Shown: positions 23,967 to 56,456 of the stretch, in pieces
Layout: each line of letters starts with the position of its first letter
How positions within the stretch are numbered: the first letter of the stretch is position 1
Assembly (NCBI GenBank): GCA_013239625.1
Contig: MU053810.1
Coordinates: 5,240,071-5,304,070, forward strand
DNA length: 64,000 nt
Source of the DNA: Lama guanicoe
Lineage: Eukaryota
Direction: 5' to 3'
Translations under genes and position numbers: made by a program
Notes under the pieces: model-generated
The model's database searches: none
Seen by the model: the letters and a program-made list of their open reading frames with translations, nothing else
Told to the model about the DNA's origin: nothing

Positions 23967-24171
23967 TGCTTCAAACCAGATGCCCTGTTACTAATAGCTG
24001 GGGGAGATTTTGAGGATCAGCTCAGAGAGGAAGTGGTCCAGAGAGTTTCTCTTCTCCTCTATTACATCATTCAACAGGATGTAGAATGTAGACTCCTATT
24101 TCCTTTCATAGAATGAGATGGAAGACATCCTGGCTTTTACCAGGCAGTACTTTGACACTTCCAGAAGCCAG
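23967..24171 (+). pseudogene. SLC39A12: SLC39A12 exon 3 equivalent (disrupted)
   Basis: cag|TGC...CAG|gtaag. Reads [38 protein letters not shown], then in a shifted frame [26 protein letters not shown]. 205 nt versus 282 expected from the recalled human peptide. Confidence 0.92.
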
Positions 24172-24992
24172 GTAAGAAAGTCAAAATAGCTAACTGGCTC
24201 TGCTGCTAAGATACAGTCTCAGAGCATGAGTTTTTAGTCCCTTGTTTTTTACTAAGATACTCAGAAACTTCTAAGAGAGGTAACTATTTGTGATTTTTAG
24301 TTATGGGATGTTAGGTGATGTAATTTAAAATTCTGAGTCTAAAGGGGGAAATGTAATGCCTAACCAGTTGTCAGATGAGTTTTAGCCAGAAGCTGGGAGG
24401 CGGGGGTGGATGGGCAGGCAGGCCAGGTGACAGGATAGCTCTGTTCTGAGTCCCCTGGGCACTAAAGTGAGTGTGACTCATGGCTTTTCATCAATCTCCA
24501 AAGACTGAACTGGAGTGGTGAGAGCAGTGTGCCTATTCGCCTTGCCTTTTGGCCAGGGAGGGAGAAGGCAGTAAGAGTTTGAGAGAGATTAATTTATAAT
24601 TAGTTACTTCCCTGAAGGTGCAGCTTGCAAATAGCATTATTCATGACATTCAGCACAGACGGTTTCCCTTTTGTGGCTTTTGATTGGTGCTGCATATGTA
24701 TGTTCAGGGGTCCCAGGTGTGTTTCTTCTCTCACAGCTCCCACTATTAGGAACCGGGCATCTTGCTACCGTCATTACTATTCCAGCAAAAGCTGCCTTTC
24801 AATTACCTTTTTGCTTTCTGCTTTGAGGTGGGAAGTTTGAGCTGATAAAATTCTCTGAACAGAAAGAGTTTTTTTGAGCCCTATTTTCTTAAAGAATTAA
24901 TTGAGGCACCACCATCATATTTTGAAGAGTGTGAGAAAATGTGGTTTTTTGTTTTCTCTCTCTCTCTCTCTCTCAAAGTATTCATTGACATG

Positions 24993-25365
24993 TGTCTTAG
25001 TCTATTTGGGCTGCTGTAACATAAAAGCCATCAACTGGGTGGCTTATCAACAACAAATTTATTTCTGACTGTTCTGGAGGCTGGGAAGTCCAAGATCAAG
25101 GCACTGGGCAGATTAGGCATCTGGTGAGAGGCGAATTTTGGGTTCATGGAAGATCACCTTTTCATTGTGTCCTCATTTGGTAGAAGGGGCAAGAGAGCTC
25201 TTATTGAGGGTCTTTTATTGAAGGGCATTATTCCCTTTCAGGAGGGCTCCACCCTCATGACCTAATTACCTCCCAAAGTCCCCATCTCCCAATAGCATCA
25301 CTTTGGGGGTTAGAATTTCAAAATGTGAATTTTGGATTGGGCACAAAAATTCATTCTATAGCAAC
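24993..25365 (-). mobile_element. MLT1A-like MaLR LTR
   Basis: 'tgtcttagtc..tttgggctgctgtaaca...ctgggtggctta..aacaaca..tttatttct..ctgttctggaggctgggaagtccaagatcaagg'. Confidence 0.85.
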
Positions 25366-26843
25366 ACATATTGATGAATTTGATTCTTGCCCTCAGTTCT
25401 GGCTTCTAGGAGTTCAGAGGTGTCTGTGCAGTCATGCTGCAGCTTAACGCCAGAAAACATATCCTCCAGTTTGCTGTACATAGGTTTAATTTCTCTTGTT
25501 ATTGGCAGAACAAATGGAGTGACTACTAAGGATGTTGTGGATGTCACCTCAGTAACTCTAATCTCATGAATCTCAAAATTTGGCCATATTTCTTCATTTC
25601 TATTTCCAAATGAGAAAATGGAGTTCCTTTATAGAATTCAGTTTTCTGTGTAAATAAGGAGGTGTGCCTACACAGAATTCCCTCAGTGCAACGTCTGTAT
25701 GATATGAGATCCGTTCAAATTAGCCACTAGGTTTTTAATCATCCTTTGTGTTACTGTCTTTTGATACAGATTAAATGCAAATGGAAAGCCAGTACTCCAA
25801 AGCAGATGGAGTGTATATATTCAATACAGATTTCTGGTTATCTAACACATATTGCACATACCTAGGCTTCCCAGTGTGTGTGTGAGATTAAACATTCGTG
25901 GAACAGAAAAAAGTAATTCAGTATTGTATGCAGACCCTTTATTCATCAATTCAGTCAAGTTGAACTGAGCTGCTGATAAGTCATAACCCTAAACTAGGCC
26001 TTAGAACAACTATCTCCCGGAGGACACTACTGTCCATCTCTAGTTCCCGGGAAGGGGCCTGTGGCCCATTCACTTGGGCTAGGATTTCTCTACCAAGACA
26101 GTCAGTCCAGACTTTGGCAGGAGGCTGGTTGACACCTCACTGCAGGCTGCTGCTGTCTTTGACTAGAGAGTGTGAGGTCACACAAGGTGCTGGCAGACCA
26201 GCCCCGCATGACTCTTTCCAGGTCTTGGTTTGCATAGGACTCAACCTCCGTTGGGCAAGCCACTACCAGTAGTTTCAAGTGGGCTTTAACCAGATCCCCA
26301 AGAGAAACAACTTTATACCGTCATTCCCTAATCTAGCCACCCTCCCAAATAGTCGAGAATGCAAGCATCCCTCTCTTTCTTTATTCTCTTTTGTCCAAAC
26401 TGCTCTGTTTTGTCTTCTTGACTCCAGCTCTTAATGCACCCACATCCTCCATTCTGTCCACTCTTTTGCTATCTCCATGGTAAATGAATAGTGATCTGCA
26501 CATGGTTCTCCACTAGTTCTGCCTCTTATCCAGAGGATGTGTATTCATGACAAGGGCAAGAGTCTCCTTGAAGAACAGACATCTTTAAGGGGATAATGGG
26601 AACAGTTAGAAATTGAAGACCAATGGGGAGTTTGAAAATTCAGTGTCATGTCAGATGAATGAATTTTTACCAAATAGAGTTCCATCTGAGACTGGGGAAT
26701 GATGGTGGTTGTATTCCCACAGACAAGTCAATCCTCTTTTAGATGAAGAACTATTTCTTGTCTTTGGGGGAAATCCTAGAGATGTTTTAATCAGAATAAC
26801 TTCAGAGGTTAAAATTTTCTTTTTACTTTGTCTGTGATTTCAG

Positions 26844-27055
26844 TGTATGGAAACCAAAATGCTGCAGAAAAAATCTGGAATCCTAAGCAGCGATGGTGCT
26901 GATGAAAATACACTTCCTCAGTTGGCAGCGACAGTCATGGCTTTGTCTCTCCAAGGTGTTTGTCTGGGGCAAAGAAGTTTGCCTTCCCCAGGCTATTTAT
27001 TTATTTTAATATATTTTCAGTTCCTTGAACAGCACAAATACTCTCCACTTATCAG
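26844..27055 (+). pseudogene. SLC39A12: SLC39A12 exon 4 equivalent (frameshifted)
   Basis: cag|TGT ATG GAA...TCA G|gtaag. Reads [12 protein letters not shown]...[16 protein letters not shown], then +4 nt; the ancestral frame resumes as [15 protein letters not shown]. 212 nt versus 208 expected. Confidence 0.92.
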
Positions 27056-28539
27056 GTAAGAATGCTTTTGGTGAATTCAACTTCCAAGTCACACCTACTA
27101 AATATAAACTGCACAAAAAAAACAAGGGCTGAAGTATGGTAATGACTGAATTTGTTCAGACATGTTTTAAATAGCATTTTTTTTTTTCTCAGCATATAGT
27201 AAGACAGCCCAGGGGCCTTTTCAAGGCAAACATGCTATGATATCTGTGTGGTGATAAGGCAAAAATATGCATTCAATTCAGTTTAGCAGGGATGACGAAA
27301 TTATAGATGGAGAGTCAAAGGGAGAGATTTTTATAATCTACCACTAGGACTAAATGAACATTTTCCTCTTTGGGACAAAGTTCTGGGCCAGGGGTGACAA
27401 AGTATTGTGTAGAAGGGAAAAATAGAGTATTCCAATTGGTGCAAGTGGCTTGATAGCAGTTTGTCTGTCATTATAAAAGTAAGTCATCTCATTTTAAATA
27501 AAAGTACTGTGTAAAGTATGCATCCTGGCTACATTCGTGACTGCCACCTTTCAGGGATCTAAGATAAAATGAGATGTCAGGAATGGAATCAGAACGTCCG
27601 TTTTCCACATTTCTTTGTACTCAACAAGCCTTGAAGAGTGAAATGACTTATTTTTTTTAATCTGTATCAGCACACCCTGCTTTGCACACCAAGGGGACCG
27701 GGTGTGTTACAATAGCTGGTACTGCCAAAACACTTCCTCCTGGGAAGTCACAGCATAGAGGAGAGATACAAAGTTTCAAAAGGACCAGCAGCAGACTCAT
27801 GATCTAGTTACATCTTCCTGTTCTAAAAGGGATCAAGAGCTAGGCGTCACACAGTTCCATGCAGAACTTTCTCTGATTGGTTTGTCCAACACATGGAATG
27901 ACAGATGTGTCTTCCTGCAATTCGTTTGTATTTTCTTTAAGAAATGAAAGAAAGAAACTTTCATTAAGATAAAAGTTGAAATACAATTAAATCATGTTAC
28001 CTAGGTGTCATAATTAGGAAATAGGCCAGGGAAAAGGATGCTATGCCGAGAATGATTTTGACGTGGAAAACGGGAATTGTGAAGTTCAGATTTCAAGTGA
28101 TTGAGTGTGAGCAGTCCAGTTTTCGTTCAACTTCAGGAATGCAATGATTCCACTTTTCCAAGAATGTAAAAATGTGTGCCACTGGAAGGCTCAGTCACTC
28201 TAGAAATAGGACGAGTCATCAGACTGGAATACAGAACATAGTTAGAGGCCAGCTGTGCTGTAAGATCCAGGCAGATTGTTATTGATTATTGTGGACCCTG
28301 GTTTAAAAAAAATCACATAATTGTTCATCAGAGGTATTCATTATCGCCTGTTTGGGCAAAATTCAGCCACTTTGCATTTGAGAACTCAGAATTCCATATC
28401 AGAGCACCATTCCATCTCAGTACAATTAGATCCTCATTCCAGATAAAATTTATTGCCACTGATTGTGTTTTTGGATAGGAGGGGGGAAAGTATGCTAGTT
28501 TTAAGTGTGTTGTAAAATATGTTTTTATTATAGATATTC

Positions 28540-31500
28540 TCAAATGTAAACAAAAGGAGAAACACTAATATAGTGAAACCTCAGCTACACAGTCTCCTGC
28601 CTCAACAATTATCAGCAAGTGGATAAATCTTGTTTTACATTTGCCTCCCTTCTCTCTCATTACTTATTTTGAAACAAATAATACATCTGTATATACTTCT
28701 GTGTGAATCTCTGAAAGAGAAGGATTTTTTTAAAAAAGCATCTATTACCAATATGGCAGCTAAAAAATTAATGATTCTTTAATATCATTTTAAAACACCC
28801 CTTTCATGTTCACATTTTTCTGATTTAAAAATGTTTTAAAACATTTTTATTGAACCAGGATCCAATAAGGTCCATAAAATTGTCAGTATGTCTCTGAAGT
28901 CTTTTTTATAGGTGTTAACGCCCTTCCCCTCCACCCTTATCTTCTTTATTTTGTTGCAAATTTTTTTGTCAGAATTAAAAAGGGATTATTTTATCCCATC
29001 TGGCTTTTGCTGACTGCATTCCTATTCATTTAACATGTGTTTCTATGCACTATGTTTCATATATGTTGATTTTTTAATTTCATTTTTTTATTGAAGTGTA
29101 GTTGATTTACAATGTTAGTTTTAGGTTGCATATTGATTTTTATATGTAGAGGCTTGGATACTTTTAGGTTATTTATTTATCTGGGGGTACCATCTTAGAG
29201 TTGGTATCTCCCATCAATGGCACGTAACATCTGCTTGTCTCTTTCCAAGAAGTTACAAGCTATGAATGTTCATCACCTAGATGATGAATTGTTTGGGACT
29301 TACCCAATGGTCATCTTCCTAATCTCTGTTTTTCATTTATCAGTATAATAATTCTATGGTGGAAAACCTTCCCCTCACCACAATTTCATTTTACTGAGGT
29401 TCTTAAAGGAACGTGAGGATGCATTCATGATTCTTTAGTTTACTACTTTTCAAAATAATAACATCTTTTCCTTGCATCCTTCAAAGAAGAATGATGAGCT
29501 TGTCTTTTTATATCACTATGATTTCATATCTCTCAATCTATTGCCTTTACTGTCTTACTGGTGTTCAGATCATTCTGTCTTTGACCAGTGGAATCTTATT
29601 TAAGGTGGCTCTAAGTCCTCTTCACAAAACCTTTAAACTTTTTGTATCCTAACCCTTGATCTCCAGTTTAAGATATTCCAGGTTCATCTTGTACATTTTC
29701 TGCCTACATCTGGGATAAGTTATTTCTCCAAATACTTTTGATTTTTGTATAAATCAGTTAATCAAACTTTTCTCTAACTGCTTTCGGATTTTGAGTTACA
29801 GTTAAGAAATTTCCCATATTCCTAGGTTATAGAGGAAGTTAACTTGAGTTTTCTTCTAGTACTTCTATGTTTGCATTTCTGACCCCCTTAGGATTAATTC
29901 TGGTGCATGTTGTGAGGATTAGATCCAGTTAATTTTTTCTATATGACTATGTAGTTTTCTTTATACCTTTGATGTAAAATGCAATGGAAATTATTTCCTC
30001 CATTGATTTGAGATGCTGCTTTTGCATACTAAAAGGATAAATGTAATCAGGTCTATTTCTGTTTTCTATTGTGTTCTTTTGACACTTGTCTATCCATGTA
30101 CCATTACTGTGCTGTTTTACTTTAAGGGCTTTATGGTATATTTTACTTTCTGAATAGAGCTAGCCTTCTTCACTGTTCTTCTTTCCAGGGTTTTCTTGGC
30201 TTGTTCATTCTTCCTAACAAATATCATGTAACTATTAAGCTCTGAGGGGAAAACCCTATGATAATTTTATTATAATTACAAAAAAAGTTGTTAAATAACT
30301 TATGAGAAATGACATTTATAAGATGTTGAATTTTTATATGCCCTAATATGTCTTTCCATTTGTTCATGTCAACATGTGTGTTTTTGTAGAGTGTCCCTCA
30401 CATAAGTTTTAGACAATTTTGGCTACATTTATGCCTAAGCATTTCACTTTCTTTTTGTCTCTCTTAACTGAGGTCCTCTGTTTCATTATAGCTTCTAACT
30501 GGTCTTTGCCTATATAAAGTTTAGTGATTTTTTTAGATTAATTTCATAAACTGAATAAAATATAATTATTTTATTCTTGCCATAATTTTTGTTTATTTGT
30601 TTGTTTTTAATTTTAGGGGGGAGGTAGTTAGGTTTATTTATTTATTTATTTTTAATGGAGGTACTGGGGAGTGAACCCAGGACCTCATGCGTGCTAAGCA
30701 TGCACTCTACCATGGAGCCATACCATCCACCCTTCTTGCCATAAGGGTTTTCAGATATATAATTATACCATCAACAAATAGGTATAGTTTTGCATCTTCT
30801 TTTTTAATTCATGTGTTCCTGTTTTCTCTGTCATCTAATTACATTGGTTAATAACCCCAATAAAATGGTAAATATTTTGAAGATGGTCTGCACCCTTACA
30901 TGTTTTTGACTTTGAAAGAAAAGCTTGTAGTGTTTCTTCACTGAGTTTAGAGAACAAATGATAAAGAAATAAATTTGCGTTTTTTATATTAACTCACCTA
31001 TTTACATTCCTAGTGCTCTTCATTTCTTCCTATGTAGTCAACTTACCATTCAGGTCATTTCATTTGATGTTTCTTGTCAGGCAGGTAGGTCTACTACTGG
31101 TAAATTTTCTCATTCATTGCTCATCTGAGGATAATTTTATTTCACCTTCATTTTTGAAACAGTGTTTTGTTGGATATTAAATTCTTCATTGACAGGTTTT
31201 GTTTTGTTTTGTTTTTTCTTTCAGGATTCTTATTCCATTACTTTCTGGCCTCCATTGTTTAGATGGGAGGTCACAATATTAATTGTATTAATATGTGATG
31301 AGTTATTCTTCTGTGACTACCTTCAAGATATATCAACAGTTTGACTATGTCTGGGTGTGGATCTTTTATATCTATCTTACTTGATGTCTGATGGACTTCT
31401 TCAACATGTAGATTAAGGTTTTTACATCAAATTTGGGAAGCTTTTAGCCATTATTTTCTCCATTTTTTTTATTTTCTGCTTCTTTCTCTTTGTCCTCTCT

Positions 31501-32000
31501 CAGTGACTACCATTAAATACAGGTCAGTATACTTGCTGCTTTCCACAGGTCTCTGAGACTTGTTCTCTTTCCTCCCTCTGTTCTTCAGATTGGATTACGT
31601 CTATTAATTTATCTTCCTGTTCGATAATTCTTTCTTCTACCATCTCAATAAGCTGTTGTACTCTAGTAAATTTTTCATTTCACTTATTCTGTTCTTTAAC
31701 TCTACAATTTCCATTTAGACTTTTGTATAACTTTTATCTGATTGAAAATTGCTATTTGTTAATTTATTATTGTCATCCTTTAGTTTCTCAAATGTAATTT
31801 TCTCTAGTTCCTTGAACATAATGGCCACTTTGAAGTCTCTGTCTGCTGAATCCAACATCTGGGAATACTCAGAGATATATTTCTTGACTGCTTTTTTTTA
31901 TCCTGACTCTGGGGCACACTTTCCCATTTCTTTGTAGGTCTCATAACTTTTTGTTGAAACTGGTCATTTAAAATAAAGTATTGTAGTAACTCTAGTTTGT
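28540..32000 (-). mobile_element. Composite of ancient L1 (L1M-type) fragments
   Basis: Long T-rich stretch with antisense L1 phrases such as 'ttttcttctagtacttctat', 'ttttatttcaccttcatttttgaa' and 'catcaaatttgggaagcttttagccattatttt'. Boundaries and subfamilies approximate. Confidence 0.65.
30586..30732 (-). mobile_element. tRNA-derived SINE, vic-1-like, inside old L1
   Basis: Perfect 12-bp TSD TTCTTGCCATAA at 30574-30585 and 30733-30744. Confidence 0.9.
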
Positions 32001-32686
32001 AATTTTTCTATTACTGGTGGTAACATTTAGGAAAATACCAGGGATATTTTTTTCACAAGTAAGAAGATAAATAAATCCAAAGAAATTCACCATTATGTTC
32101 AGTTATTCTCTGTATCAATTAATTTTTAAAAACCTACAGCTGTAGCAAGGGAAACAAAACTGCGATCTATAAATTGACAGCCATGCCACAATAGCATTAG
32201 AAAACGAGGTTTAGTTTGTCCCCACAATCTCATTCCTTTTCATTTCCTTTCTCTTTTTTGTGTTAAACACTTAAGGGGAAAATAATTCGATTGGCTTTAC
32301 ATTAAAGTTATAGTTAACCTACTAAGGATGTATAGTGCCAAGGAAATAAATTTTCTAAGAATTAATTCAGTTTCATCTCTTGTTTACATTTTTATACACC
32401 TAGACAAAGAATTAGTTGACTTACCAGAAAGCACTCCTTTTATGGAATTACTCATTTCATCATGGTTCAGCCCTCAAGCTTAGCCAAGATCTTGTGAAGG
32501 AATCAATATTCATGTGAAGTATAAATGGTCTTTATTCTTGTTCAGAATAAAATCTTGACTTTTCATTAGAACTTGGAAAATTTTGCTTAGTAAAATGTCT
32601 ATTCTGTGGCCATCTGAAATAGTGGCTATTCTGAAACTGGCCTGTCTTTATTCTGTGTGACACCAGATTTTGTATGAAATTTCTAG

Positions 32687-32859
32687 AACTAGACCAACTC
32701 CTCAACATTCTCTGGACTAAAAGTACCTGTATCAGAAAAGATAAAATCCATCAACTTCAAAGGGAACGAAACAACCCAACAATCCGTGATTGGGACTACC
32801 CTCATCTCTCTGTATCCATGGACCAAGAGTCAGAGGATGCTCCAGCTTCCTGGGATCAG
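32687..32859 (+). pseudogene. SLC39A12: SLC39A12 exon 5 equivalent (open)
   Basis: tag|AA CTA GAC...GAT CAG|gtattg; (E)[15 protein letters not shown]...[11 protein letters not shown]; 173 nt. Confidence 0.92.
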
Positions 32860-34529
32860 GTATTGGCATTATTCCTCTTGTACCATCATTTGCTACTGAG
32901 AAAAGAAGTAGCTGTGACAATTCTGTAAGAGTTGTAAAAAACTTAAGGGGTAATGTGTATTTCCTTAAATGTAAAAACTATTCTAGTTCCACAGTGGGGT
33001 CAGGGTTTGTTTTTTGTTTTTTTGGTGTTTTTCTTTTACAAGTGAATCTTTGCAGACATAAACTTGAGGCCAAGCTATTTAGGAGAATTATATATATATA
33101 TTGCTCTTTTGTCAATTGGGTCCATATTGAAGGCATGAATTATTAATTCAGCAAATATATTTGAGCATCTACTATGTGAATCACCATTGTGGGCACAAAG
33201 GGTAAAGTATTGAACAAAAACAGGAGCAATGGAGCCAACAGGGCAGTAGGAGGCTATGGACATAATATAAAAACTTCCAATGCATGAACACTTTGAAGTT
33301 AGGTTGGATTATGAAGAGATTACTTTGGGTTGTGAACAACAGAGGAATATTTGTATCGACTGAGAAGGTTTTGGAGGAAAGGTAATACATGAGCCTATTT
33401 ATCTCCTGATTTCCTGAAGTTGTGTTCCAAAGTACATTCACTGGCCTACCTACGTAATTCTTGGAAAGGGTTGCTCTGGTCCATTCTGTTTGGGAAAACT
33501 GGAGATGTATATTGCACTGTAGCATATTAAAGTATCTGGGGAGGTCCTTTCGTAAATACAATTTTTTAGTCTTATTGAATCAAGTATTTTTCAAACACTG
33601 ACTATAGAAACCTTCCCTGCCCTAATTATTTAAGATCTTGAAAAATTGATATTCCATGATAACGGCTTACATTGATTGAGTCCTTCCTATCTGTTGGACA
33701 CTGCATAATTTCATCTGCAGTTCTTCATTTAATTATTACCAACAACTATATGAGATTAGGTTATATGCATCCTGTGGATGAGGAAATTGAGGCATGGAGC
33801 TAACAAGTGGTTCCTTAAGGTCACAGAAACTAAGGGTCTATACATAGGTTATCTGATAGCATATTCTGTGCTCTTAACAACTATGCTATTATTTGAGAAG
33901 TGTTGATTTAAAGAAATAAAACTATTTTTGTCATTTGTATTTTAGATGAGTTAATAGTCTTATTAAGCATAATCTGTATTTTAAAAGAGCAAAATTTCTT
34001 ACATATTCCTAACAATATTGAAGGTTGTTCCTGCAAGTTTTGAATACATGATTGGACAGTATCACATATTTTTCTTACTATATATTTTAAAAGAGTGAAC
34101 TTCTGTTAATTATGCTGTATATAAAAGGCATCAATTAAAATTGATTCTTTCAAACTCACACTTAGTGTATTCAACTGAAGGTAACAAGAGTTGATGCCTA
34201 TATGAATCCTTGTTTGTAAAGTCTCCTTTAATGTTCCTTCAGGGCCAGCTCTTAGGAAGGGAAGACATTTGTCTGATGGAGACCCTATTTGCATAAAGAG
34301 TATAAGGTTATTTCTTAAAATGTAGGGGTATTTAAGGCACACATCTTCTACTTAAGACATACATCTTCTAAGAACAGTAATAATCATTTCCTGTGCTGAC
34401 TATGAAAAAGAAACAGAGCAACCTCTTTCTCAGTCCTTCTCTGTTTCAACATGTCACTTTCTTTGTGGATCTTGAGGGGACCCTTAAGGTAGGATATTAA
34501 ATCTGAAGATTCTGCGTATATTATTTAGA

Positions 34530-36912: not shown

Positions 36913-37084
36913 ACTTGCTTCTCTGCTGGGCAGTTGGTGGAGATATTTCTACAGAACAGGCATTCCCCCATTTCTAAGGAGGACTTTAAGCAAATGAGTC
37001 CGGGAATCATCCAGCAGTTGCTCAGCTGTTCTTGCCAGCTGCCCCAAGGCCTACAAGCACAGCTGTCACCCACCACTGTGGAGA
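36913..37084 (+). pseudogene. SLC39A12: SLC39A12 exon 6 equivalent (open)
   Basis: cag|ACT TGC...GAG A|gtaagt; [14 protein letters not shown]...[17 protein letters not shown]...PTTVE; 172 nt. Confidence 0.93.
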
Positions 37085-38070: not shown

Positions 38071-39384
38071 TTTTCTTTTTTAACATTTTTTATTGATTTA
38101 TAATCATTTTACAATGTTGTGTCAAATTCCAGTGTAGAGCACAATTTTTCAGTCATACATGAACATATATATATTCATTGTCATATTTTTTCCTCTGTGA
38201 GCTACCATAAGATCTTGTATATATTTCCCTGTGCTATACAGTATAATCTTGTTTATCTATTCTACAATTTTGAAATCCCATCTATCCTTTCCCACCCTCT
38301 GCCCCCTTGGCAACCACAAGTTTGTTTTCTATGTTTATGAGTCTATTTCTCTTTTGTATTCATGCTTTGTTTTTTTTGTTGTTGTTTTTGTTTTTGTTTT
38401 AGATTCTACATATGAGCGATCTCATATGGTATTTTTCTTTCTCTTTCTGGCTTACTTCACTTAGAATGACATTCTCCAGGAGCATCCATGTTGCTGCAAA
38501 TGGCATTATGTTGTCGGTTTTTATGGCTGAGTAGTACTCCATTGTATAAATATACCACATCTTCTTTATCCAGTCANNNNNNNNNNNNNNNNNNNNNNNN
38601 NNNNNNNNNNNNNNNNNNNNNNNNNNNNNNNNNNNNNNNNNNNNNNNNNNNNNNNNNNNNNNNNNNNNNNNNNNNNNNNNNNNNNNNNNNNNNNNNNNNN
38701 NNNNNNNNNNNNNNNNNNNNNNNNNNNNNNNNNNNNNNNGTCTTCTGAGAATCTCCATACTGTTTTCCACAATGCCTGCACCATACTATAGAGCTACAGT
38801 CATCAAGACAGCATGGTATTGGTACAAAAACAGACATACAGACCAATGGAACAGAATAGAGAGCCCAGAAATGAGCCCACAAACTTTTGGTCAGCTAATC
38901 TTCAACAAAGTAGGCAAGAATATACAATGGAATAAACAGTCTCTTCAGCAAATGGTGCTGGGAAAACTGGACAGCAGCATGTAAAACAATGAAGCTTGAA
39001 CAGTCCCTTACACCATACACAAAAATCAACTCAAAATGGATCAAAGACTTAAACATAAGACAAGATACAATAAACCTCCTGGAGGAAAATATAGGCAAAA
39101 CATTATCTGACATACATCTCAAAAATTTTCTCCTAGAAGAAATAAAAGCAAGAATAAACAAATGGGACCTAATGAAACTTACAAGCTTCTGCACAGTGAA
39201 GGAAACCATAAGTAAGACAAAAAGATAACCGAAGGAATGGGAAAAAATTTTTGCTAATGAAACCGACAAAGGCTTGATCTCCAGAATATATAAGCAGCTC
39301 ATATGACTGTATAAGAAAAAAATAAACAACCCAATCCGAAAATGGGCAGAAAACCTAAACAAGCAATTCCCCAAGGAAGACATA
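38071..39384 (-). mobile_element. Young 5'-inverted L1 insertion (contains N-gap 38577-38739)
   Basis: - strand 3' UTR and ORF2 end (DWIKKMWYIYTMEYYSAIK; ..LWKTVW) at 38071-38783; + strand ORF2 ([45 protein letters not shown]) at ~38783-39384; TSD CATATTCTTTT at 38060-38070 and 39385-39395. Confidence 0.9.
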
Positions 39385-39395
39385 CATATTCTTTT

Positions 39396-42966: not shown

Positions 42967-43137
42967 AATATGGCTTCAGCGCAATGGCCGTGATGCTGCT
43001 GATGCTGGGCTCCAAGCTAGGGACAAGTCTGATCCTTTTCCACAGCTGAGGAGAGCTACGGGCTCATTTTACAGCTGTTTGTGGGCCTGGCCGTGGGGAC
43101 ACTTTCTGGGGATGCTCTGCTCCACCTCATCCCTCAG
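42967..43137 (+). pseudogene. SLC39A12: SLC39A12 exon 7 equivalent (frameshift, stop, dead donor)
   Basis: tag|AA TAT GGC. Reads [26 protein letters not shown] (TGA 43047-43049); the shifted frame gives [30 protein letters not shown]. Donor position reads CAG|ataagc. Confidence 0.92.
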
Positions 43138-45337
43138 ATAAGCTGCTCTTGTCCGCTTCGATGACGTGTTTCTAATTTCTCTTTACCTTTAGCCACTGGA
43201 GGTGTGTATGCACCATTCCACAGTGACTTGGATGCCTAGAGACAGTGGCCTGTGTTCTCCTCAGAAATCAGTGTTATTCCCCCAAAGTCCTTGCAGGAGC
43301 AAAGAGATGATCAACCATAAAATTCACCATATTGCTCTTACTTCTGAAATTAAAAAAATAGGTGGTCAAATATAGATTCCGACTAAGAAAACTCCAGGAG
43401 GTGTACAGTCAGTATCTACAAGTAAAAATGAATAGACTGTAAGATGCACTTGTCTTTCTCCCGTTGCCTCAAGCCTCACAAATTCCACCCTCTGCCCGTC
43501 TCTGCTGTCTTTTCTGCCCCAGAAGTTTGTGTCTCCTCCTGCATCAGCTCCCTTGCAGGCTGGATTGTTGTTTGAGGTCCCTTATTAGGGACACAACAGA
43601 AAAGCCAGGGTGGGAGGAGAGAGTGGCAGGGGTATTGCTTCCCCACTGCCCTCCCTCTGGTACTTATTCTCGAAGCAGCTGATTACCTGCAATATTACTG
43701 CTCCCCAGCTCCACTTCCCACTGAGCTTCAGTAACATTGTTTCCAACCTTTGCCCTTTGCCCTGTCAGACCTAAGAGAGGTAATGACTTCCTGGGATTGC
43801 TCGTTTTAGAGTGTCTCATTATTCCTCGTTTATACCCTTGACCCTGCCCACACCTCTGGTCATAGCACCAGCATTAACCTCTCTTCATCTGAACCATCAA
43901 AATGAATTTCTCTTTCTTGCCCAGCTATTAGCACCTAGATTTCCTTTAAGAAACATGCAAGCTCCAGGAAGCTGGCTCTCTGCTGGAGTCTTCTGAGGCT
44001 CTCTATTGATCAGAAATAAAAGGACTAGGACCTGAGATGCAAAAGAGTTCAGGGAGAAGTGTCTTCAGATGAGGTTACCCATTCCTTCTCAGATCGCTTA
44101 TGATGGATAATGATGAGCAAATGATTTCCCCTCTCCTGCAAAGCCTGAGATGTTAAAATTTTCCACAAGCCCCTGGCAATTTCCTCCAGGGTCACTCTTG
44201 TTGCTTAGAGGCTCCACAGTTATTAGATTTTCTGAAAATTGCAAAGTGAGCATTGGAGAAATGAAACAAACCACTATTAGTCTTAATTTCCCTTGTAATC
44301 TAATTTTCTGGAAATATTTCAGGGCTTATTGGCTGGAGGCAGTGGCCTAAGCCTGTTTCTAGGTCACTGCAGTGGGTACAGAGCTGATCACTGCCCAGGA
44401 ACCTGGGATACAGCAACTGGATGGATCTTAAAGCTGCCTGGGTCTCCCCCCCAGCAGGGGGAGCACACAGCTCAAGGCAGCAGGGGAAGACGTGGGTGGG
44501 TGGGACTGTCAGCTGGCCCTATAGAGACATATTACAGAAGGGAACTGAGCTGGGTTTCATTTAGAAGGCAGTCACTTTGAGAAAAGAGACGAGGACAAAA
44601 GTTTTTGGGAAGAGGAAGAAAAATGCAATACAAGTGTGGTGGACAGCTAGAAAAATCAGTGGTTCCTGAATCTGGTCCAAGGCAAGTTTAAAGGACTACC
44701 CAGAAATGAGAAAATACTGCTGTCATGATTTCCTCTTTTAACTGGCTAAATTTACTCAGTTTTAAGATCGAGATTTTATTCTGTGGGGTTTTCTTCTGTT
44801 TTGTGACATTCCAATGCCCTCTGTTTTGTGAAATGATGGTAATTACAAATACTAGATGGGTGTCCTTCCATTTCTTTACCAAAAGAAAACGTTGACTAAC
44901 ATGGACTTGTTTTCAGTTATGTCCATAAACTCAATGTGTGTATGTAGATCTATATGGATACTCACACATGTACACGTATGTACGTATATGTATACATACT
45001 TGTGAATCTACATACATATTCGTATGAGCATATACCCATAGGAGTTCTTTTTCCTTTTTAAAATGTAGTCCTCAGGAACATCCTAAATGTGAAAAACACT
45101 GTGCTATTCCCCAAAGTGTCTTCTCCTGGGGAGGCAATGTGATACATAGTGATTTCCTAGCTCACAAGAAATCATGAGGTCAACAATGGAATGAGTCAAC
45201 CAAGGGGATGAGTCAACTAGAGGAAAATTCCTAAAGCTTTTCTAGTATCCTTTTGTGTCCCAGAGAGCTGACACTATGGCTAGGCATACAGGATGGAAAA
45301 GTCTTTCTGGCAGATTTCTTACTGATCTGAACGTTTA

Positions 45338-46001: not shown

Positions 46002-46154
46002 ATTCTTGGTTTACGTAAGCAGAAAGCTTCAGAGCTGGGACAGTTCTATGAAAGCAAGGACCATAGTTGGAAAATCTTGGGATTAATTGGAGGCATCTAT
46101 GGATTTTTCTTGATAGAAAAATGTTTTATCCTTCTGGTACCACCAAGTGCTGAG
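46002..46154 (+). pseudogene. SLC39A12: SLC39A12 exon 8 equivalent (open; not in ORF track)
   Basis: tag|ATT CTT GGT...GCT GAG|gtatat; [51 protein letters not shown]; 153 nt. Confidence 0.92.
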
Positions 46155-48027
46155 GTATATTTAAAATCTTACTTATCTTTTGCTTGAGGGCATCATGATG
46201 TTGATCTTTTATTTCAGAACTACTTGTTCAAAAGGAATTGACATTGTGAGGTTGTCTATAAGGGATGGGGCTCTGATTTCTAGAACACACAGATGATTCT
46301 GACAGCTATAAGCCTGAGTGTTAATTTTTTAAACATCTGTTGCTGGCCCATTCATACACTTGTTACAACCTCCCTGGCTAGTTTAGACACAGGAGACCAT
46401 TTCATGTCTGGGAATGAAGGGGTTTCAAGAGCTAGCTACCAATCTGTGTTTTGGATGTCTTTCCTAACCCGAAACACAGAAACAAGCAAGCAGAAATGTT
46501 GGGAAAAAATCCACAAAATTATGCATCATTTTCTACCTTCAGGACATTTAAAATTATGAACACAAGAGGCTCAGGAATGGGAATTATGGCCCATCTTTTT
46601 ATCAGTTTAAATAATTGCTTTCATTGTGCCTGTATTTGATCAATTTCTGCATATAAAATGAAACGTAAAATGCAATGTGGCTTATTCATAGATTTTTTGT
46701 TTCTTGTTGCTCTTATGCATCATCCTATCAGAAAATAGATTAACTCGTTGGGAGAGTGAAAAAGGTAAACACTTGTGAAAAACTCTAGGAGACTAAAATA
46801 AACTTCTCTTACAAATCCTGGGGCTCAGCAGTCCTCATGGTTTTCCACGTATTCCCTGACTTTCTACTTGTTCACATACTATAAAACACTTGGGCACAGG
46901 GCACACACATCAGTAGTCTTTTAAAATATCTGCATTTGTTGTTTACTATCTGCCCTAGGTTTTTCAAAAATTCTATTTTATGTGTCAAAAATGAGGTGGT
47001 TTTCTGGATAGATGGAGGGATGTTAGATGGATTGATGGGTGATAAAATACAAAATGTCCATGGTAGGAAATGGGGGGAGGATACCTGGGTGTTGACATCA
47101 CAATTCTTTCAGCTCTTCTGTATAGTTGAAACTTTTCATTAAAAATAGATTTTAAACAAAATCCTGTAACATTTTTCTGTTTTAATGAATCAGAGCTGTT
47201 ATTTGGCCTGGGACCCATGCTAGGATTCTGCAGTCATTCAGAAATTTGGAATGCCAGCTTCAATCCCAGTACGTAGTCTAAAAGTTTAGGAACTTAACCT
47301 CCACAAAAGGAGTTCTAATCTAAATAAGCATAAAAAAATAAGATTCTCCATATACACAATAGACTAGTATACCCAGACTGGGAAAACTAAATTCCACAGC
47401 CAACATATCAATCTATGCATAATAATTAGAAATGTAACCAGATGGAAATGAGTGAAAAAAATTCTGAGCATCTCCATGTTAGAATTTTTTTCAGATTGTC
47501 CTTGGACTTGTCAGAAAACCTAAAATGAGTTTTAAGAACCTAATTTTAAGATGTATGATACTGGGTAAAATAAAAGCAATGGGAATATTTTAGAAGTTAC
47601 AAGTACTTTAGTGGGTGGTTATCTTTCTGGAGATATTAATTTAGTAATTATGGGGTAAAATACAGTTTCAGTTATCATCCTTTTGGTATCTCCATCAGAA
47701 AGAATTCACAATTTAATTTTACAGTGAGTAAAAAAGAGAGTAGAATAAAAAAAGACTGACTACACTGTTTGAGCCTTTGTGAATCATGACTAGAATTTCT
47801 GAAGTTGTGTTCTTAAAGTATTCAGAATATGCGTGATATTTTTGGGCAGTCCTGTGCTTCTCCATTTTAGCAAGTGTTTATCCTGATGAAATTCTTCCCA
47901 GTCCTCATTTTGTGTCACCCATCACTTTGGCCAATAAGCAAAATGTTAACTAGAACCATGGAATTGACAAAGGCTGCACCTGTGTTCTTCTGGCTTCAGC
48001 AACTAATTTTAAACCATCTTCATTCAG

Positions 48028-48138
48028 CAGGGTGTGTCATTGGTTATTGGGCATGTGGAACATTCCCACCACCTTGCATCCAAGCCTGAATTAAGTGACC
48101 AGTCAGGCAGAGGCAAATCTGCTTCCACTATCCAGTTG
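48028..48138 (+). pseudogene. SLC39A12: SLC39A12 exon 9 equivalent (open; His-rich loop)
   Basis: cag|CAG GGT...CAG TTG|gtaggt (NAGNAG acceptor); [37 protein letters not shown]; 111 nt. Confidence 0.92.
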
Positions 48139-49871
48139 GTAGGTTATCGATCTCAAGTGTTCTATTGATTTGATTACCTTCTTTCCTTTATTCCTTGATA
48201 AATAGATGAAAATCAGTAGGCTAGGTGAATAGAATCCACTCCTGATTTGCCTATTCTTGACCGTGATAAATCCTGTTTGGAAAACTTTGCCAAGCACCTG
48301 CAAGCTGTTTTAAACAGTGAAATGCATTTTCCACGGATTCAAGTTGCTGTTCTCTGCACCACTTTGAAACGTGTATAGATCAGATAGACATAATACACAT
48401 ATCCTTAATCACTGTGTTTACATGCTTTCATAAACCAGCCAACCTTGAGCTCTTCCATTCTAAATAATCCTCAGTCATGACCAGGTGAGGCCAAATAAAT
48501 GCTGAGCAAGGAATTAGTGCATCCAGGAGTCGGGTGCTCATTTCATAACATGGGAGAGAACTTATTCTGCCCAATGAGATGTCTCATTGTAAGTGCCTCC
48601 TATTATATTGAATTTTCCATGACAAAATCTTCTATATGAATTCTCAAAACACAACTGCCAATCAGATTCTAAAGAATATTCCTGTTCTAATTCTTAAAGT
48701 AACAAGTAAGGGGACAGGAAAATGATGAAAGTACTATATCATAGTTAAAAAACTTGCCTCCTGTACCCATGGCCTTGGGATAGGGGGTTACAGTTCAAGA
48801 ACAGATTCCCGAGTAGGGATTAGTAAACTGTTCTTGAGACATGAACCTGCCCAAACAGAAGTCTGGCAGTAGGCTGCAGATCTAGAGCTGACTCAGAGAC
48901 AGGGACAAAAATTTTTTCTTTAAAGATAATGATTTGAACAAAAGCCCTGTTATTGTTGAGATACATCATGTGTGGTTTGAAAGAACATAACTTCAAGCTG
49001 AAATTAATTTTTAATTCACTTTAATGCTGACTTCATTCCTTCTGTGGGAATGAAGGGTCCAGAACCCCAAGATGCAAATAAACAAAACTCTGATGCTAAC
49101 AAATTTAGAACAACTTGACTCCTCAAACTCGCTAATAATGTATTCACCGTTTCTTTTGTTATTTGAGCTGCCAGATCCACCCAAAGAGAAACAAATAATA
49201 CGAACTTTTAGAATTGTTTGACGGGTTCAATTTCCTGTTTTGTTTTGTTTTGTTTTTTAAGGAAGGAGGGAACTCACAAATCTTCCCAATCATCAAAGGA
49301 GTCTCGGATGCTTGCCTCTAAATTCCTTTACCTAGTGTGACAATAAATAGCTTTTTGGGGAAAAAAAAATCCTAGAATAAATATTTGAACTCCTGTCTTT
49401 TTTAAGTAGATCTATAGAGCCTTTTGATTATAATCAGCCTTTTGATATGATGTAATTTTTAAAAACTACATTTTTTTTTTGTTTCTAGATCCACAGATCT
49501 CAGGCAAGAGGGCTGACTGCCTCCTCTAACATTGCATCTTTCAGCTCCTACCTTCTCAGCCATCCTGCTCCAAAAATAGCCTATTATTACATCTTTTGAG
49601 TAGCTGCTTCATTCTAACATGTGAATGTCAAGTTTACTTTTTCTGTTTTACATTTGAAAAATAAAAAGATGCTTATGTCTCACACTAAATTTGTCTCAAT
49701 GTTTCCACAATTTTGGGTGATACGAATGTGCTTGTTCTAGATTATGTTCCGTACATGAATACAAAGTCTTCTTTTCACATAATAGCATCAGAATCTGAGG
49801 CCTAGGGAAGGAAAGTGACTTTCCTGAAACTGAACCATGAGTCAGTCTCTGAAATAAAATCATATCATCTT

Positions 49872-49985
49872 GGAGGGGGAGAGCATAACTCTGTGGTAGA
49901 GCGCGTGCTTAGCATGTACAAGGTCCTGACTTCAATCGCTAGTACCTCCATTAAAAAAACTTTTTTAATAAATAAATAAACCTTA
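49872..49985 (+). mobile_element. vic-1-like SINE
   Basis: 'gggggagagcataactctgtggtagagcgcgtgcttagcatg..aggtcctg..ttcaatc..agtacctccattaaaa'; both flanks aaaat..tatcatctt. Confidence 0.8.
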
Positions 49986-50617
49986 AAAATTGTATCATCT
50001 TAACTCATAGAAGTCAATTTCAAAATTTCACTTCTCTGTCATAAGAAAGGATGAAAAATCTTTTAAATGTATTGTGTTCATCTTTTGTCAGTTTATCTAC
50101 TTTCTCAATCAGCAAGAGACTTTGACTGACTGGAAAGGCAACAAAACCAGCCTATTCTGCTGTGATGAATGAAATGAGATGCTGGGTTTACATAGGTTTC
50201 TCCTCCATGATCTACTTAAAGATTAGAAGGTGAACCCTAGATCCACAATCTGCCATATAGGAGAAGTGCCAACTTAGGTCAAGAATCAAAAATGTTTTCC
50301 CTACAGCTTTTGTGTTTCATAAAGGCTTACATGCTGTAAGAGTCTGAATTACGGACTATCTCAGTTGCCCCTAGCTCTCTATGGACAACTCTGAGCTACG
50401 TAACAGTGCTGGTTTCATCTAAGTGTAGACAGTGGAGAAAACATGCTTGCAGACTGTCAGCTCTACCTTCTCTGTTTGTCTTTGAAACTTAGAAGTTCTA
50501 ACATACTCCAAGGAGTTCAAATGTCTTTTGATAATCAACAGAACGCTTCACATGTTTCATTTCATAAAATGAGGACTATTGCTTATCTTTCATCCTTTCT
50601 TTTTCAGTTTAAAATAG

Positions 50618-50684
50618 AAAGGCCCAGAAGATTCACAGGCAGCTGAAATTCCTATAGGCAGTATGACTGCCCCCAACAGAAAAT
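50618..50684 (+). pseudogene. SLC39A12: SLC39A12 exon 10 equivalent (open)
   Basis: tag|AAA GGC CCA...AGA AAA T|gtacca; KGPEDSQAAEIPIGSMTAPNRK; 67 nt; the phase joins exon 11 as T|GC = Cys. Confidence 0.88.
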
Positions 50685-53600
50685 GTACCAATTAAAGAAA
50701 GCAAAATATTAACTATAGAAAGTGCCATGTAAAAAGTTATACCTGCTTTAATGTAAATACGTCAAAATCATCTAAATTTCATTTTGAGTATGTATTTCAT
50801 TATTAAAACCTTGGCAATAATTTTTTTTAAATTGAGGTATAGTCAGTTTACAGTGTTGTGTCATTTTCTGAAAACAGCACAGTCCTTCAAAAAAATTTTA
50901 ATAAAGACCCAATCCTATGAGTCTTTTAAACATATTACACATTAATATCAACTTTATTCTTTAAAAATGTTTTCCTCAGTTGCTTAGAACTGATCCTCTG
51001 GAAACTTCAATTAGCATGCATACCTATGTGGTTATCAAGGCTCCTTTAAAATCCTGCTTATTTGAGCCTTTCCCTTCCTACGAAGTCTGGAGACATAATT
51101 GGGTTTTTTGTTTTGTATCACATCTACTGATAATTCATCACAAATGTCTGTCTCATTTGAGATACTGTCATTAAGATGGTAGAGTTCAAAAGAGTGATTT
51201 CTCATTACTTACATCTTATTCTGTAACTCATTTGTTTGTATAATTTGCATCCAACCATTTTCTTTCTACCATTTCCACTATTTTTGAATTTAATCTACCA
51301 GTTGTGGATAGAACTTTATTCCCTTTTACTTATGTTTCTGAATAACTCTTAGAATTTTTTTTAAAGGTCTGTTTTGATTTTTATCAGTTGCTCCTGAATC
51401 TTTGCTCCATTTTTCTCACCAGTATTAACCTTTTGTGAACACCCTGTCAATGTTTTGATGTTAAGCAGTCATGATTAGTTATCCCCATTCTACCATAATA
51501 AGTTAGTTACCTCATAAGAAAAATAGCTATTTATTGAGTACTTATTATATACCAGGTACAATGCTAAACACATGAAATGGATTATCTCATTTAATCCTCT
51601 TGCAACTTAATGAAGTAAGAATAATTAATAACTAAATTATACAAATGAAGAGACTGATCCTTAGGGAGGGTAGGTCACTGCTCTGGATAACACAGCTAGG
51701 AAGTTCTAGCATTGAGGATCTGAGGAATGCAACTGTGCCAACCGTTTCCTTGTGATCATCCATTCATTTATGCATGCATCCATGTGTTTTTTCACATTGT
51801 TTCATTCATTCAAGAAATGTCTGACGATGTTTCAGGCACTGTGTATGCACTGGGGGATAAAAATAGGAATGATCATTATGCCTAGTTTGCAATGTGGTTG
51901 AGGATGTGAATGCTAGTAAGAACAAACACAATTGTAACAATCACGATTCTGAATGTGTTCGATGTATTAGCTCCTGTAATTTATTTCTTTGATTCAAAAT
52001 ATGTAATTACAGAGTCCATCCAACTCTGCTCTCAGAGTGTTGTCAGTGATATCTTTCCTTATAAATCTTTAGTTCCAGGAGACATTTTAGAATGTCTGGC
52101 ACCTAAAAGGTATATAATAGACACTTCTTTGTTTTAGGAAGAAAGGAAGAGGAGAGAAGGCTATGCCTAGTCAAATTAGGAGCAGAGAGCAGCTGCTCCA
52201 TCAGGGAGTAAGGATGGTCTGATTCAAATATTTTGTGGACCTCATATCTTTCCACTTCACGTATCAAGCTCGCCGTAGAGAATGAACAGTGAACACATCC
52301 AAATTTGATTACTCAACTGCCCTTTTGCTGGGGACATATTGAATTAGCTTCAAATACTTGATTACTCGTTTCATATTACCTCATTGATGGAACTCAGCTT
52401 GTGTTTCAAAAGACAGGATGTGAAAATTCTATCCACAGTCATTTAAATAAACAAAAAGCAACATGATACAGGTCCAGTGTACATATCACCATGGAAAACA
52501 TCTAATAGGTCAGAAATGTGGAACTCAATATGACTGCCAGGTACCAAAGGAAAGGTAAAATATAGTCAGTAATTCAGAAATGAATACATTGATTTGCCAG
52601 TGAATGCTTGTCTTATTTTCCACTGAAAAATGTTGAAATTATCTTAAACAATGTGCACAATGTGTTCCCTGTAGCTTATATGCAAATATGTATTTTTGCC
52701 TTGTGGCTTGGTACATGTCCATGACGTGACATTTAGAAACCCACAATCAGAGATAATAAAATAACAGACAACCAAAGTAGGCCATGCTGGTTTTTGGCAG
52801 AGTATAAATCGGGTAAAGATTTTCCCATTTGAATATATGCTATTCATATCAAAGCTGTACGTAAGCATCTGGACAGCACAATTTATTTGTATGCTGAAAT
52901 GCTGTCAAATGAATTACTTTAAATTATTTTACTTTGTTTTATTTTCACAAAGAAGAATTTTACTTCTGAAAGTCGGCAGGAAGAGCCATGTGACCCGTTT
53001 GCATTATTAGGCTCTGAGAGCTTCCAGGCAATGCCAGTAAGCACCCCCTGAATTCAATCATTTGATATTTGTTCTGCGTTTTTATGATTGTTGCCTAACA
53101 TCTCAGTTTTAATAAAGGACAAAATGAACCAGGAAACCACAAGAAGCATAGAAGTAGGTCTCACAGTGATGGTTGTAAAGAAAGCAAGATTTTTAGAAGT
53201 AAAATGCCTGGAGTATCTTTGCAACACCATCAGTAGAGTTATTTCCTGGCTGGTAGTCTGGGTTATATCTGCTGTTTACTGAAGTTACTTATTTCACTGT
53301 GGGATATGCAATAAGTCAAATCATATTCCCCTAATAAAATAAGAACCCGATTATAATGCAGCCCCTCTGCAATCAGACCATGGAACAGAAACCAGAAGGT
53401 AACCTTTTCTTATTTTTATTGAGTGTAGAGTTATTAGAATATTGTGTGCCATTCTAACAGTAACAACAGTGACCCCTCATACCTGTCACACACAGCATAC
53501 ACATCAGTATACATCAACTGAGTGATTAATGAAGTTTTTAGGCTACGGCAATTGATTTTAATGGCAATTCTTATCAAATAGTATACCTTGGTAGTTCAGT

Positions 53601-54509
53601 CAGAATGAGTGTTAACCTTGAAATACTTTTTGTATTTGTTAGTGGTTCTGCTCCGTAATTGGGTCATACTAATATACAACTTTAGGTTATTGAAAACAGA
53701 AATTCTGTCCATTAAAAACTTAAACCCAATTACGATCTAATTATTTTACTAATGAAACCCATTATGGTCCAAATTTCTTTGGCTCTCTACTAATCAGATA
53801 ATGTATATGATGTAATAGAATCACATGAAAACAGCTTATCTTTATTTTATCCAACTGCTAGTCGGTCTAGTACTGAAAATTATTTTTCAGAAATAATTCA
53901 GTCATTGTTCTAAAGCTAACTTCGGAATCAGAAGGGTTGGTAATGATTCTATCCTGGTCACATTTGGGGAGTGAACGAGGCACTGCGGGAAGGTCGCTAG
54001 CACCAACTAGAAAGGGGAACCATCACAAAATGACAGGAGGTTGACAGTTGACTCCAGCAGATTGACACGAGGGATATTCTGACTCCGAGGGGAAAGTTTT
54101 GGAAAGCAGACTCCATTTTAATGACATTCTGCAGGGAGGCTCTTAAATTATTTAAAAATTCTTTACGAAAGACGCATATGAAAAGGTCATTGGTGGTATT
54201 TTGGAAGGTCATAACAGTGTTATTTTTATTTCCTTCTTTTTGCACAACTGAACAAGGTGATAGAATAGCAAATACCCTCCCTTATCTCATGATCAGTCAG
54301 GCCGGATAGAAAAACAGCGACCAAACATCCAAGTGTTCCATATTGGTTACCATATTTGCCTCTTTAGTCCTGACTTGTTTTGAAAGCTGAAACAAAGTGG
54401 TTACTTAACCTGATACAATTTTAGGATGTGGAAGACGGATGTGTTGAAGGATTCCATGAAGTATGTAGCACTCTGTTAATGCTTCTCACACTTTTATTTG
54501 GTTCTTTAG

Positions 54510-54668
54510 GCAAAACCATTAGCTTGTTAGCAGTAATGATCCTAGCTGGGGACAGCCTGCATAATTTTGCAGATGGCCTAGTAATAGGAGCGGCCTTCTC
54601 ATCTTCATTGGAGTTGGGAGTGACCATAACAATTGCTATCTTGTGTCATGAAATTCCCCATGAAGTGG
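54510..54668 (+). pseudogene. SLC39A12: SLC39A12 exon 11 equivalent (open; ZIP metal-site motifs)
   Basis: tag|GC AAA ACC...GTG G|gtaagt; [55 protein letters not shown]-1 family HEXPHE motif; 159 nt. Confidence 0.95.
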
Positions 54669-56268
54669 GTAAGTCTGCCAGTAGGATCACTGTTTCCTGC
54701 TTGTTGAGAAAAATCATACTCTATTTCTAGCTATGGTTTACTAGGCTCCTTTTTCTACCACACAATTGAAAGATGAATACTTTCCGTTCATAATTGATTT
54801 AAACCATAAAAATCTGAGAGCTAGAAAAAAGAATTCCTGTACCTCAAGATAAAATTCAATGAAACTTTTTAAATGTTATTTCCTGGAACCAGAAGTGACT
54901 CTTTCTGAATTCTGGAGAATTCTATATGGGAGAGAGTCATCGGGGAAACCTCCTTTTAAAGAACTTCGGCAAAAACTTTAAAATCTGCATATTAAACGTG
55001 GGGGAAACATTCAAGAGGGAGTTTTATCCATTATGTCAGCAAACAGGCCAATGAGGTAAAATAACATTTAAACGAAAGCCAAACCATTGTTTCATCAACC
55101 TGATTTATACAGAATGTCTAAAGCGAAGCATGACATTGAAATGACAGGCGTGTGGTAGCAGATGGGTGTAAGACTCTTTTTCTAGATAATCTTAATAACC
55201 CATGTAATTCAGATCCTGCCTCCCAGGAACCAAGATGACACAGGGTAGACATTTCTGGACCAGATCCAGAAAGAATAGAGGCTGGTCCCAGGCACATGTA
55301 TGCCCTAGAAAGAGGGTTCTTGGTGGTCCATCTTTCTGCTCCCACTTTCATTAGCGGCTGGGACCACCCCTGACCTCTTATGTTCTGGGACTATTGTTCA
55401 GAGTCCTTTCACTGATCATCACTGACCCATTCCTCTCTGAGGAGTTTTTCCAGGGTCCTTCCTGAATCTGTTAAATATGACTTTCTCCTGGTCTGAGAGT
55501 CTTATCGTATGGTCCTATTTTTAGCTACTATAATAAAAACCAGCTGGGGTGGGTGACACTCCATGGCAGGCCAGCAGAAATGTCTTAAGTCCTGTTCAAA
55601 GGATTAATTATGCAGTGGAACTAGGAAACTGAGTCCCCAGGCTGTCCCTTGATTGAATTCCAGCCTCTTCTCAAATCCCAAAACTAAGAAAGGCTCTCAG
55701 ATTAAAAGATCATGCTTCTTTGGGAGGAAAACTGTGGCGAGAATAAGGTCATTATCCTATAATCATCGAGGCAGCAAAACATTTTCTAAAGGATGAATTT
55801 GTTTTCCTCACCAGCTTTTGCAGTGATTTAAGAATCTCATATTAAGTTGTTTTCTCTTTCCCTATAGCCGTTCCCACCTAAGCAAAAAAGAAAAGCCCAT
55901 ATAATGTTTACTACCTTGGGATTTTGCCTGGCAAGTTTGCAGGTAAAAAGATTTAGAAACCCCAGGGCAGCAAGGGCTTTATTTTGCATTTGTCTAAGTT
56001 AAAGATGTCACAGGACATTAGGAAGGAAAAGTGTGTCACAGTTCTCTCTGTATATACTACCTTCAGGAGCAGTAAAAGGAATAAAACTCTTGAAATATCA
56101 CTTCCAAAAGTATAATGAGATGGGCTATAAATCCTTGAGAAATATAGGAAAGTGTTTTATTAACTGATCGTTCAATTTTACTGAAATTTGAAACTAATAG
56201 CAAATGACTCTAGCAAAGGCATGATTAGTTAAATGAGAATTATATTTTCCTTTTCCCTTAAATTTCAG

Positions 56269-56456
56269 GAGACTTTGCTGTGCTGTTAAGCTCTGGACTT
56301 CCTATTAAGATCGCCATCCTGATGAATTTTATAAGTGCTCTAACTGCCTTCATAGCACTGTACATTGGGCTCTCAGTATCAACAGATCCATGTGTTCAAA
56401 ATTGGATCTTAACAGTTACTGCTGGGATGTTCTTATACTTATCCTTGGTGGAAATG
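56269..56456 (+). pseudogene. SLC39A12: SLC39A12 exon 12 equivalent (open)
   Basis: cag|GA GAC TTT...GAA ATG|gtaagc; (G)[62 protein letters not shown]; 188 nt. Confidence 0.95.

Follow-up and report, generated by a model that had tools for sequence, protein, structure and literature searches.

A disabled, intron-containing SLC39A12 (ZIP12) locus in the guanaco and the probable loss of this zinc transporter gene in camelids

We describe a degraded locus of SLC39A12, the gene for the zinc transporter ZIP12, in a 64,000-nucleotide stretch of the guanaco (Lama guanicoe) genome (GenBank assembly GCA_013239625.1, contig MU053810.1, forward-strand positions 5,240,071 to 5,304,070), hereafter called the window. 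Coordinates are counted from its first nucleotide.

Results

Tblastn searches of the window with buffalo, pig and rhino ZIP12 located ten colinear SLC39A12 exons on the + strand at 23967-56456, spanning buffalo residues 88-649. E values against buffalo ZIP12 were mostly 1e-13 to 1e-31, and 3e-6 for the shortest exon. In the numbering of the human gene, these are exons 3 to 12. Exon 3 (23967-24171, buffalo residues 88-181) and exon 4 (26844-27055, ZIP4_domain) survive as remnants, and exon 7 (42967-43137), which encodes the first membrane helices, is also damaged. The frame is open in exon 5 (32687-32859, of normal size), exon 6 (36913-37084, EF-hand_Zip), exon 8 (46002-46154), exon 9 (48028-48138, the exon skipped in 654-amino-acid isoforms), exon 10 (50618-50684, followed by a weak donor, GTACCA) and exon 12 (56269-56456; Pfam Zip E 2e-11). 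Exon 11 (54510-54668; Pfam Zip E 1e-13) has intact HNFAD and HEIPHE motifs.

The identity of the locus was supported by several features. Its domains follow the order ZIP4_domain, EF-hand_Zip and Zip, with ZIP12 as the top matches, and exons 11-12 hold the metal-site motifs HNFADG and HEIPHEVGD, the latter split by the exon boundary before its final D; the LIV-1 motif is HEXPHEXGD. Exon 11, used as a protein-database query, returned ZIP12 proteins from many vertebrates; the same exon gave 0 matches in a PDB sequence search, and an ESM Atlas look-up gave nothing beyond family names. Identity to placental ZIP12 was approximately 84-85% over 523 codons (440-447 identical residues in the 15 closest sequences). 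In a FastTree protein tree the locus fell inside Artiodactyla with a support of 0.95, as sister to pigs with a support of only 0.67. Exon order, phases and sizes agree with those of the LIV-1 subfamily gene SLC39A12 in pig (XP_003130776.2), cattle, hippo (P0214), whales and horse, and seven of the ten exons have exactly the size expected from buffalo ZIP12 (P0049). Unlike those placental genes, the guanaco locus has three frameshifts, two nonsense codons and a dead donor, and is without upstream exons 1-2. A retrocopy has no introns; the nine present here, of 1.6-5.9 kb, therefore identify a genomic copy.

Exon 2 was not detected anywhere in the window (best profile hidden Markov model E 0.15), and neither was exon 13 (best E 0.24), whereas control exons scored 1e-23 and 5e-18. 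The last intron of human SLC39A12 is long, and exon 13 may simply lie past the window end.

The lesions begin in exon 3, which measures 205 nucleotides (nt) instead of the 282 of buffalo; the net change of -77 comprises a 3-nt loss in a Leu run and a deletion of approximately 74 nt. Only 1 of 54 orthologs compared, that of oryx, has any gap over the deleted stretch, and none contains a stop. A nonsense TAG at 24109 replaces a codon that is Gln in 50 of the 54, and the in-frame reading of exon 3 ends after 49 codons at a TGA at 24114. Exon 4 is 212 nt long against 208 in buffalo, with a +4 frameshift near 26995-27005, and carries a nonsense TAA at 27007, where the orthologs have Glu (47 of 54) or Asp (6 of 54). 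Exon 7 has lost two nucleotides (171 against 173), which creates a TGA at 43047, and is followed by AT (43138-43139) in place of a GT donor. The splice sites are otherwise in order, with AG at all ten acceptors and GT at the other nine donors. The frame thus ends in exon 3, ahead of any membrane helix, and exons 3-12 contain six disabling lesions; therefore, the ZIP12 transporter cannot be made from this locus. No intact ZIP12 frame, with a signal peptide and eight membrane helices, is present there.

An initial annotation, made from the nucleotide sequence alone, had already described ten ordered exons in a genomic rather than retrotransposed copy, with at least three frameshifts, in-frame stops, an internal deletion, a GT-to-AT donor change and a satellite junction. 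The exons and lesions were confirmed, and a 33-bp tandem array does lie upstream. The MIR, MLT1, MER5A and L1M fragments that it placed in the introns were named by eye, without a repeat library, and are taken here as presumptive.

The region 23900-33000 is real and common to close relatives, as 16 of 24 listed sequencing runs hold 0.86-0.92 of its sampled words; these runs carry five organism labels and come from seven studies, one possibly the source, and their word content speaks for the region and not for single lesions. RNA runs X17-X20 contained 0.10-0.13 of the words and gave no evidence for expression.

Three protein searches, of which one listed all of its 84 matches and the other two the best 120 of 821 and of 807, and 30 cluster look-ups (up to 15 members listed each) yielded no Camelus, Vicugna or Lama ZIP12 among the matches and members listed, in a database whose camelid coverage is untested. 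Pigs, ruminants, hippo, whales, horses, rhinos, bats, carnivores, primates and rodents were all represented among the listed ZIP12 matches. Full-length matches without a species name clustered with bats in the tree. For the variable exon 5, for which all 84 matches were listed, the best was a bat protein with 81% identity. Among 449 fetched proteins, the best scores were 46/57 for exon 5, 50/57 for exon 6 and 41/51 for exon 8, no closer than ordinary mammals.

Two dromedary gene tables agree with this result. A catalogue of transporters in the supraoptic nucleus, restricted to genes with a mean count above 0 (PMC9508118 supplement), contains 13 of the 14 SLC39 genes and 10 of 10 SLC30 genes, SLC39A12 being the sole SLC39 gene missing from it. 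ZIP12 expression in brain is described as high (PMC11698502). A kidney table mapped to CamDro2/Ensembl 100, which includes zero-count genes (PMC8222267 file 10), names the same 13 SLC39 genes and never SLC39A12 in the available portion (30 of 32 matches listed). SLC22A4 is missing from the transporter catalogue as well (PMC9508118 file 6), and SPNS3 is present.

Upstream of exon 3, positions 1-23966 contain neither exon 2 nor a recognized exon of MRC1 or of any other intact gene. The MRC1 lectin domain was not found in 131 of the 198 upstream reading frames (taken longest first, at least 52 amino acids) scanned with Pfam, which gave only an RRM match in a retrocopy and two sub-threshold chance matches. 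Within the window as a whole, the Pfam scan of frames recognized no neighboring gene from the MRC1 or CACNB2 side. The upstream flank includes a tandem array of approximately 108 units of 33 bp at 15021-18594; its units are 65-70% alike and form higher-order blocks of approximately 227-260 bp and 790-820 bp.

For comparison, we take CACNB2 to be the next gene after SLC39A12 in the usual order, and a pig-like order to be MRC1, SLC39A12, CACNB2, YME1L1 ... GAD2, MYO3A, GPR158, THNSL1. Across vertebrates, the neighbors of MRC1 are STAM and SLC39A12 (PMC4229073). The corresponding block of the dromedary kidney table follows chromosome order, as the neighboring blocks show. Combined with the identifiers (IDs) in the transporter catalogue, it gives VIM, ST8SIA6, STAM, TMEM236, MRC1 (8354), GPR158 (8574), MYO3A (8724), GAD2, APBB1IP, ABI1, ACBD5, MASTL, YME1L1, an unnamed gene, CACNB2 (12541), another unnamed gene (13781), THNSL1, ENKUR ... 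SPAG6 and PLXDC2 (PMC8222267; PMC9508118). By row and ID order, at least eight named genes thus stand between dromedary MRC1 and CACNB2. The initial annotation had proposed MRC1 - SLC39A12 - CACNB2 synteny as a check; no neighbor gene lies in the window to decide it, and the dromedary rows suggest that MRC1 and CACNB2 are separated. A metagenome scan, in which 1 of 41 stretches was confirmed, found a distant ZIP12-like locus (L001) with approximately 70% identity and much shorter introns; it was not informative for synteny.

Decay was estimated from amino acid replacements and stops. The terminal branch of the locus was 0.111, against approximately 0.075 for the pig lineage (523 codons, FastTree). 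The locus changes 10 of 233 near-invariant columns. Of the 20 ungulates and whales compared, 19 change 0-3; the mean is 1.35, a background that comes out too low for species whose near relatives were also included. When single lineages were compared the excess was smaller, with 30 changes vs 23 in pig, 29 vs 19 in hippo and approximately 30 vs 7-12 in the other five. These replacements correspond to a neutral distance of approximately 0.018-0.027 (confidence range 0.007-0.044), and the two nonsense codons to 0.033 with a very wide range, so that the decay may be put at about 0.015-0.03 substitutions per site. A neutral rate of 1.3-2.2e-9 per site per year would place the onset of decay roughly 7-23 million years (My) ago. 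The intact ZIP12 of hippo, shrew, pika and beaver changes 7-11 of approximately 235 conserved columns, which hints at relaxed selection in those species.

Several other features of the window were noted. A decayed processed copy of an mRNA 3' end lies on the - strand at 12917-14117 (RRM_1 E 1e-13); its parent is presumably an hnRNP M-like gene. This copy ends in a poly(A) tail, is bordered by a repeat resembling a target-site duplication (12907-12915 and 14118-14126) and represents a separate insertion of L1 type. Next to the 33-bp array, the segment at 14134-15020 is GC-rich on both sides of a 227-N gap, and may represent, on the - strand, the leader of an endogenous retrovirus. Intron 6 holds a young L1 fragment (38080-39380) that contains a 163-N gap and, around it, the arrangement typical of a 5' inversion. 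The window also contains seven copies of a tRNA-like short interspersed element, which we presume to be of the camelid type.

Discussion

We consider it likely that the guanaco locus is a unitary pseudogene, the only SLC39A12 of its lineage, and that the gene is dead in all living camelids. That the locus is the sole copy, whether the loss is family-wide or confined to the South American Lamini, is a claim we hold with high confidence. The initial annotation was right about a pseudogene of genomic, non-retrotransposed origin, and its preference for a decayed duplicate over gene loss is the part that found no support. In such a scheme, exons 3-13 would be a dead partial segmental duplicate near a satellite and the intact SLC39A12 would lie at another site, as the missing 5' exons and the tandem array upstream might indicate. 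MRC1, TMEM236, CACNB2, STAM, VIM and ST8SIA6 also occur under two IDs each in one dromedary table; however, the same doubling affects unlinked genes such as SLC39A1, A7 and A8, and the files do not agree on IDs, so we rejected a dromedary MRC1-CACNB2 duplication as a naming artefact. An intact camelid copy appears neither among the listed protein matches nor in the two tables, and a copy that had split off 7-23 My ago should lead the exon 5 search, in which the best match is instead that of a bat. The satellite junction, read by the initial annotation as a sign of duplication, is accompanied by a missing 5' end, which the breakpoint of a rearrangement in the MRC1-CACNB2 interval would explain better. 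A dead duplicate is thus less likely than true loss, and we regard it as improbable.

Sequencing or assembly errors could in principle make an intact gene appear broken, as the window is draft sequence with two N gaps (390 N) and the lesions were read in the assembly only. Six lesions of four kinds, among them a 74-nt deletion, together with excess replacements, are hardly the signature of such errors, and the sequencing runs show the region to be real, single lesions being outside that measure; we give this explanation almost no credence. A true loss limited to South American camelids, or independent in camels and possibly favored by altitude, is improbable as well. The decay distance of 0.007-0.044 overlaps an Old World/New World camel split at 11-25 My (PMC4884201), llamas show no muscularization of pulmonary arterioles at altitude (PMC6504829), and the Camelus evidence consists of annotation and protein searches, not DNA of the locus. 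Against it, the dromedary is also without an annotated SLC39A12 and has MRC1 apart from CACNB2, and no Camelus protein was found among the listed matches. Because the estimate of 7-23 My overlaps that split and the dromedary data point the same way, a loss just before the split, common to the family, is the simplest reading.

How this unitary pseudogene lost its 5' end may be explained by one intrachromosomal inversion, toward which we lean. No intact SLC39A12 would exist elsewhere in the genome. One breakpoint would lie in the MRC1-CACNB2 interval, probably in SLC39A12 intron 2, and the second would fall between GPR158 and THNSL1; a single inversion with these breakpoints would derive the dromedary order from the pig-like one, and exons 3-13 would thereby be cut off from exons 1-2 and the promoter. 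A break at SLC39A12 would also account for the lack of exon 2 and of an MRC1 lectin domain in the upstream flank (1-23966), part of which should, on this model, derive from the THNSL1 side. The 33-bp array lies in the candidate breakpoint neighborhood and may or may not mark the breakpoint. The inversion could have been either the killer of the gene or a sequel to its death. The exons would then have drifted neutrally, by approximately 0.015-0.03 substitutions per site over some 7-23 My.

Several points weigh against this account. The lesions were read in draft sequence, and copy number was argued from proteins and annotation tables. Adequate camelid coverage of the protein database is the assumption behind the protein result; the big clusters were listed in part (15 of 61, 15 of 54 and 15 of 43 members), and 701 and 687 lower-ranked matches lie outside the two best-120 listings. 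The dromedary tables are annotation and not DNA, so that an assembly gap or an unnamed gene model would mimic absence. Gene order there is row and ID order in a scaffolded assembly of another species, not coordinates, and the name column of the kidney table is partly scrambled in the portion available (ID 8574 carries the name DUSP26 there but GPR158 in PMC9508118). As regards decay, the amino acid excess is modest: hippo changes 7 of 237 near-invariant columns, and 11 at a looser threshold, for which the count in the locus is 22 of 331 and the background mean 3.85; the branches of shrew, pika and beaver are as long as that of the locus or longer. The inversion, for its part, takes the CACNB2 adjacency and the pig-like order as its starting point.

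Camelids settled in the Andes later than the estimated time of loss. A loss that is older than this settlement and shared with lowland camels was therefore not selected there and could be at most a pre-adaptation, so Andean altitude was probably not its cause. The initial annotation had pointed to the high-altitude species among camelids; the loss itself is favored by our results, and a link to altitude is weak, as the loss is seemingly common to the lowland dromedary. In hypoxic rats, ZIP12 deletion lowers pulmonary pressure and reduces right ventricular hypertrophy and vessel remodelling (PMC6504829; PMC7395987). The yak has vessels as thin as those of the llama (PMC6504829), and a Bos mutus ZIP12 record is present among the cluster members listed; thus, that trait does not depend on ZIP12 loss. 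A bolder and unlikely proposition is that one inversion in a Miocene ancestor of all living camelids cut intron 2 and inactivated the gene, that camels, llamas, alpacas, guanacos and vicunas have been without ZIP12 from then on, and that this loss took away the HIF-ZIP12-zinc arm of pulmonary vessel remodelling and helped to pre-adapt South American camelids to the altiplano. The camelid state would be like that of the Slc39a12 knockout WKY rat, which is without ZIP12 and shows attenuated hypoxic pulmonary hypertension (PMC7395987; PMC6504829). Unlike in the knockout rat, the loss would be family-wide and fixed for millions of years, and no camelid phenotype is tied to it.

The loss of ZIP12 would be a further case of a known class, the mammalian unitary pseudogene. 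Like the OAS, PCSK9 and KRT24 losses (PMC9964502; PMC7929951; PMC6662840), it concerns an intron-containing orthologue that decayed without a working paralogue; unlike them, guanaco SLC39A12 was also apparently split by an inversion. Literature searches, including the supplements of PMC5865188, found no report of ZIP12 loss, which genome-wide loss tables of the TOGA type may record.

Conclusions

Among the sampled mammals and birds, ZIP12 is conserved. Neurite growth and the closure of the neural tube in frogs are reported to require it (PMC11698502), it is reported to drive hypoxic pulmonary hypertension in rats (PMC6504829), and a humanized anti-ZIP12 antibody is under test on patient cells (PMC13238927 abstract A001). 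If our reading is correct, SLC39A12 would show clearly how a chromosomal inversion can divide a gene, and the old observation on llama lung arterioles would become testable. Camelids would be natural knockouts, providing a test of ZIP12 dispensability in large, healthy mammals that bears on ZIP12 as a drug target.

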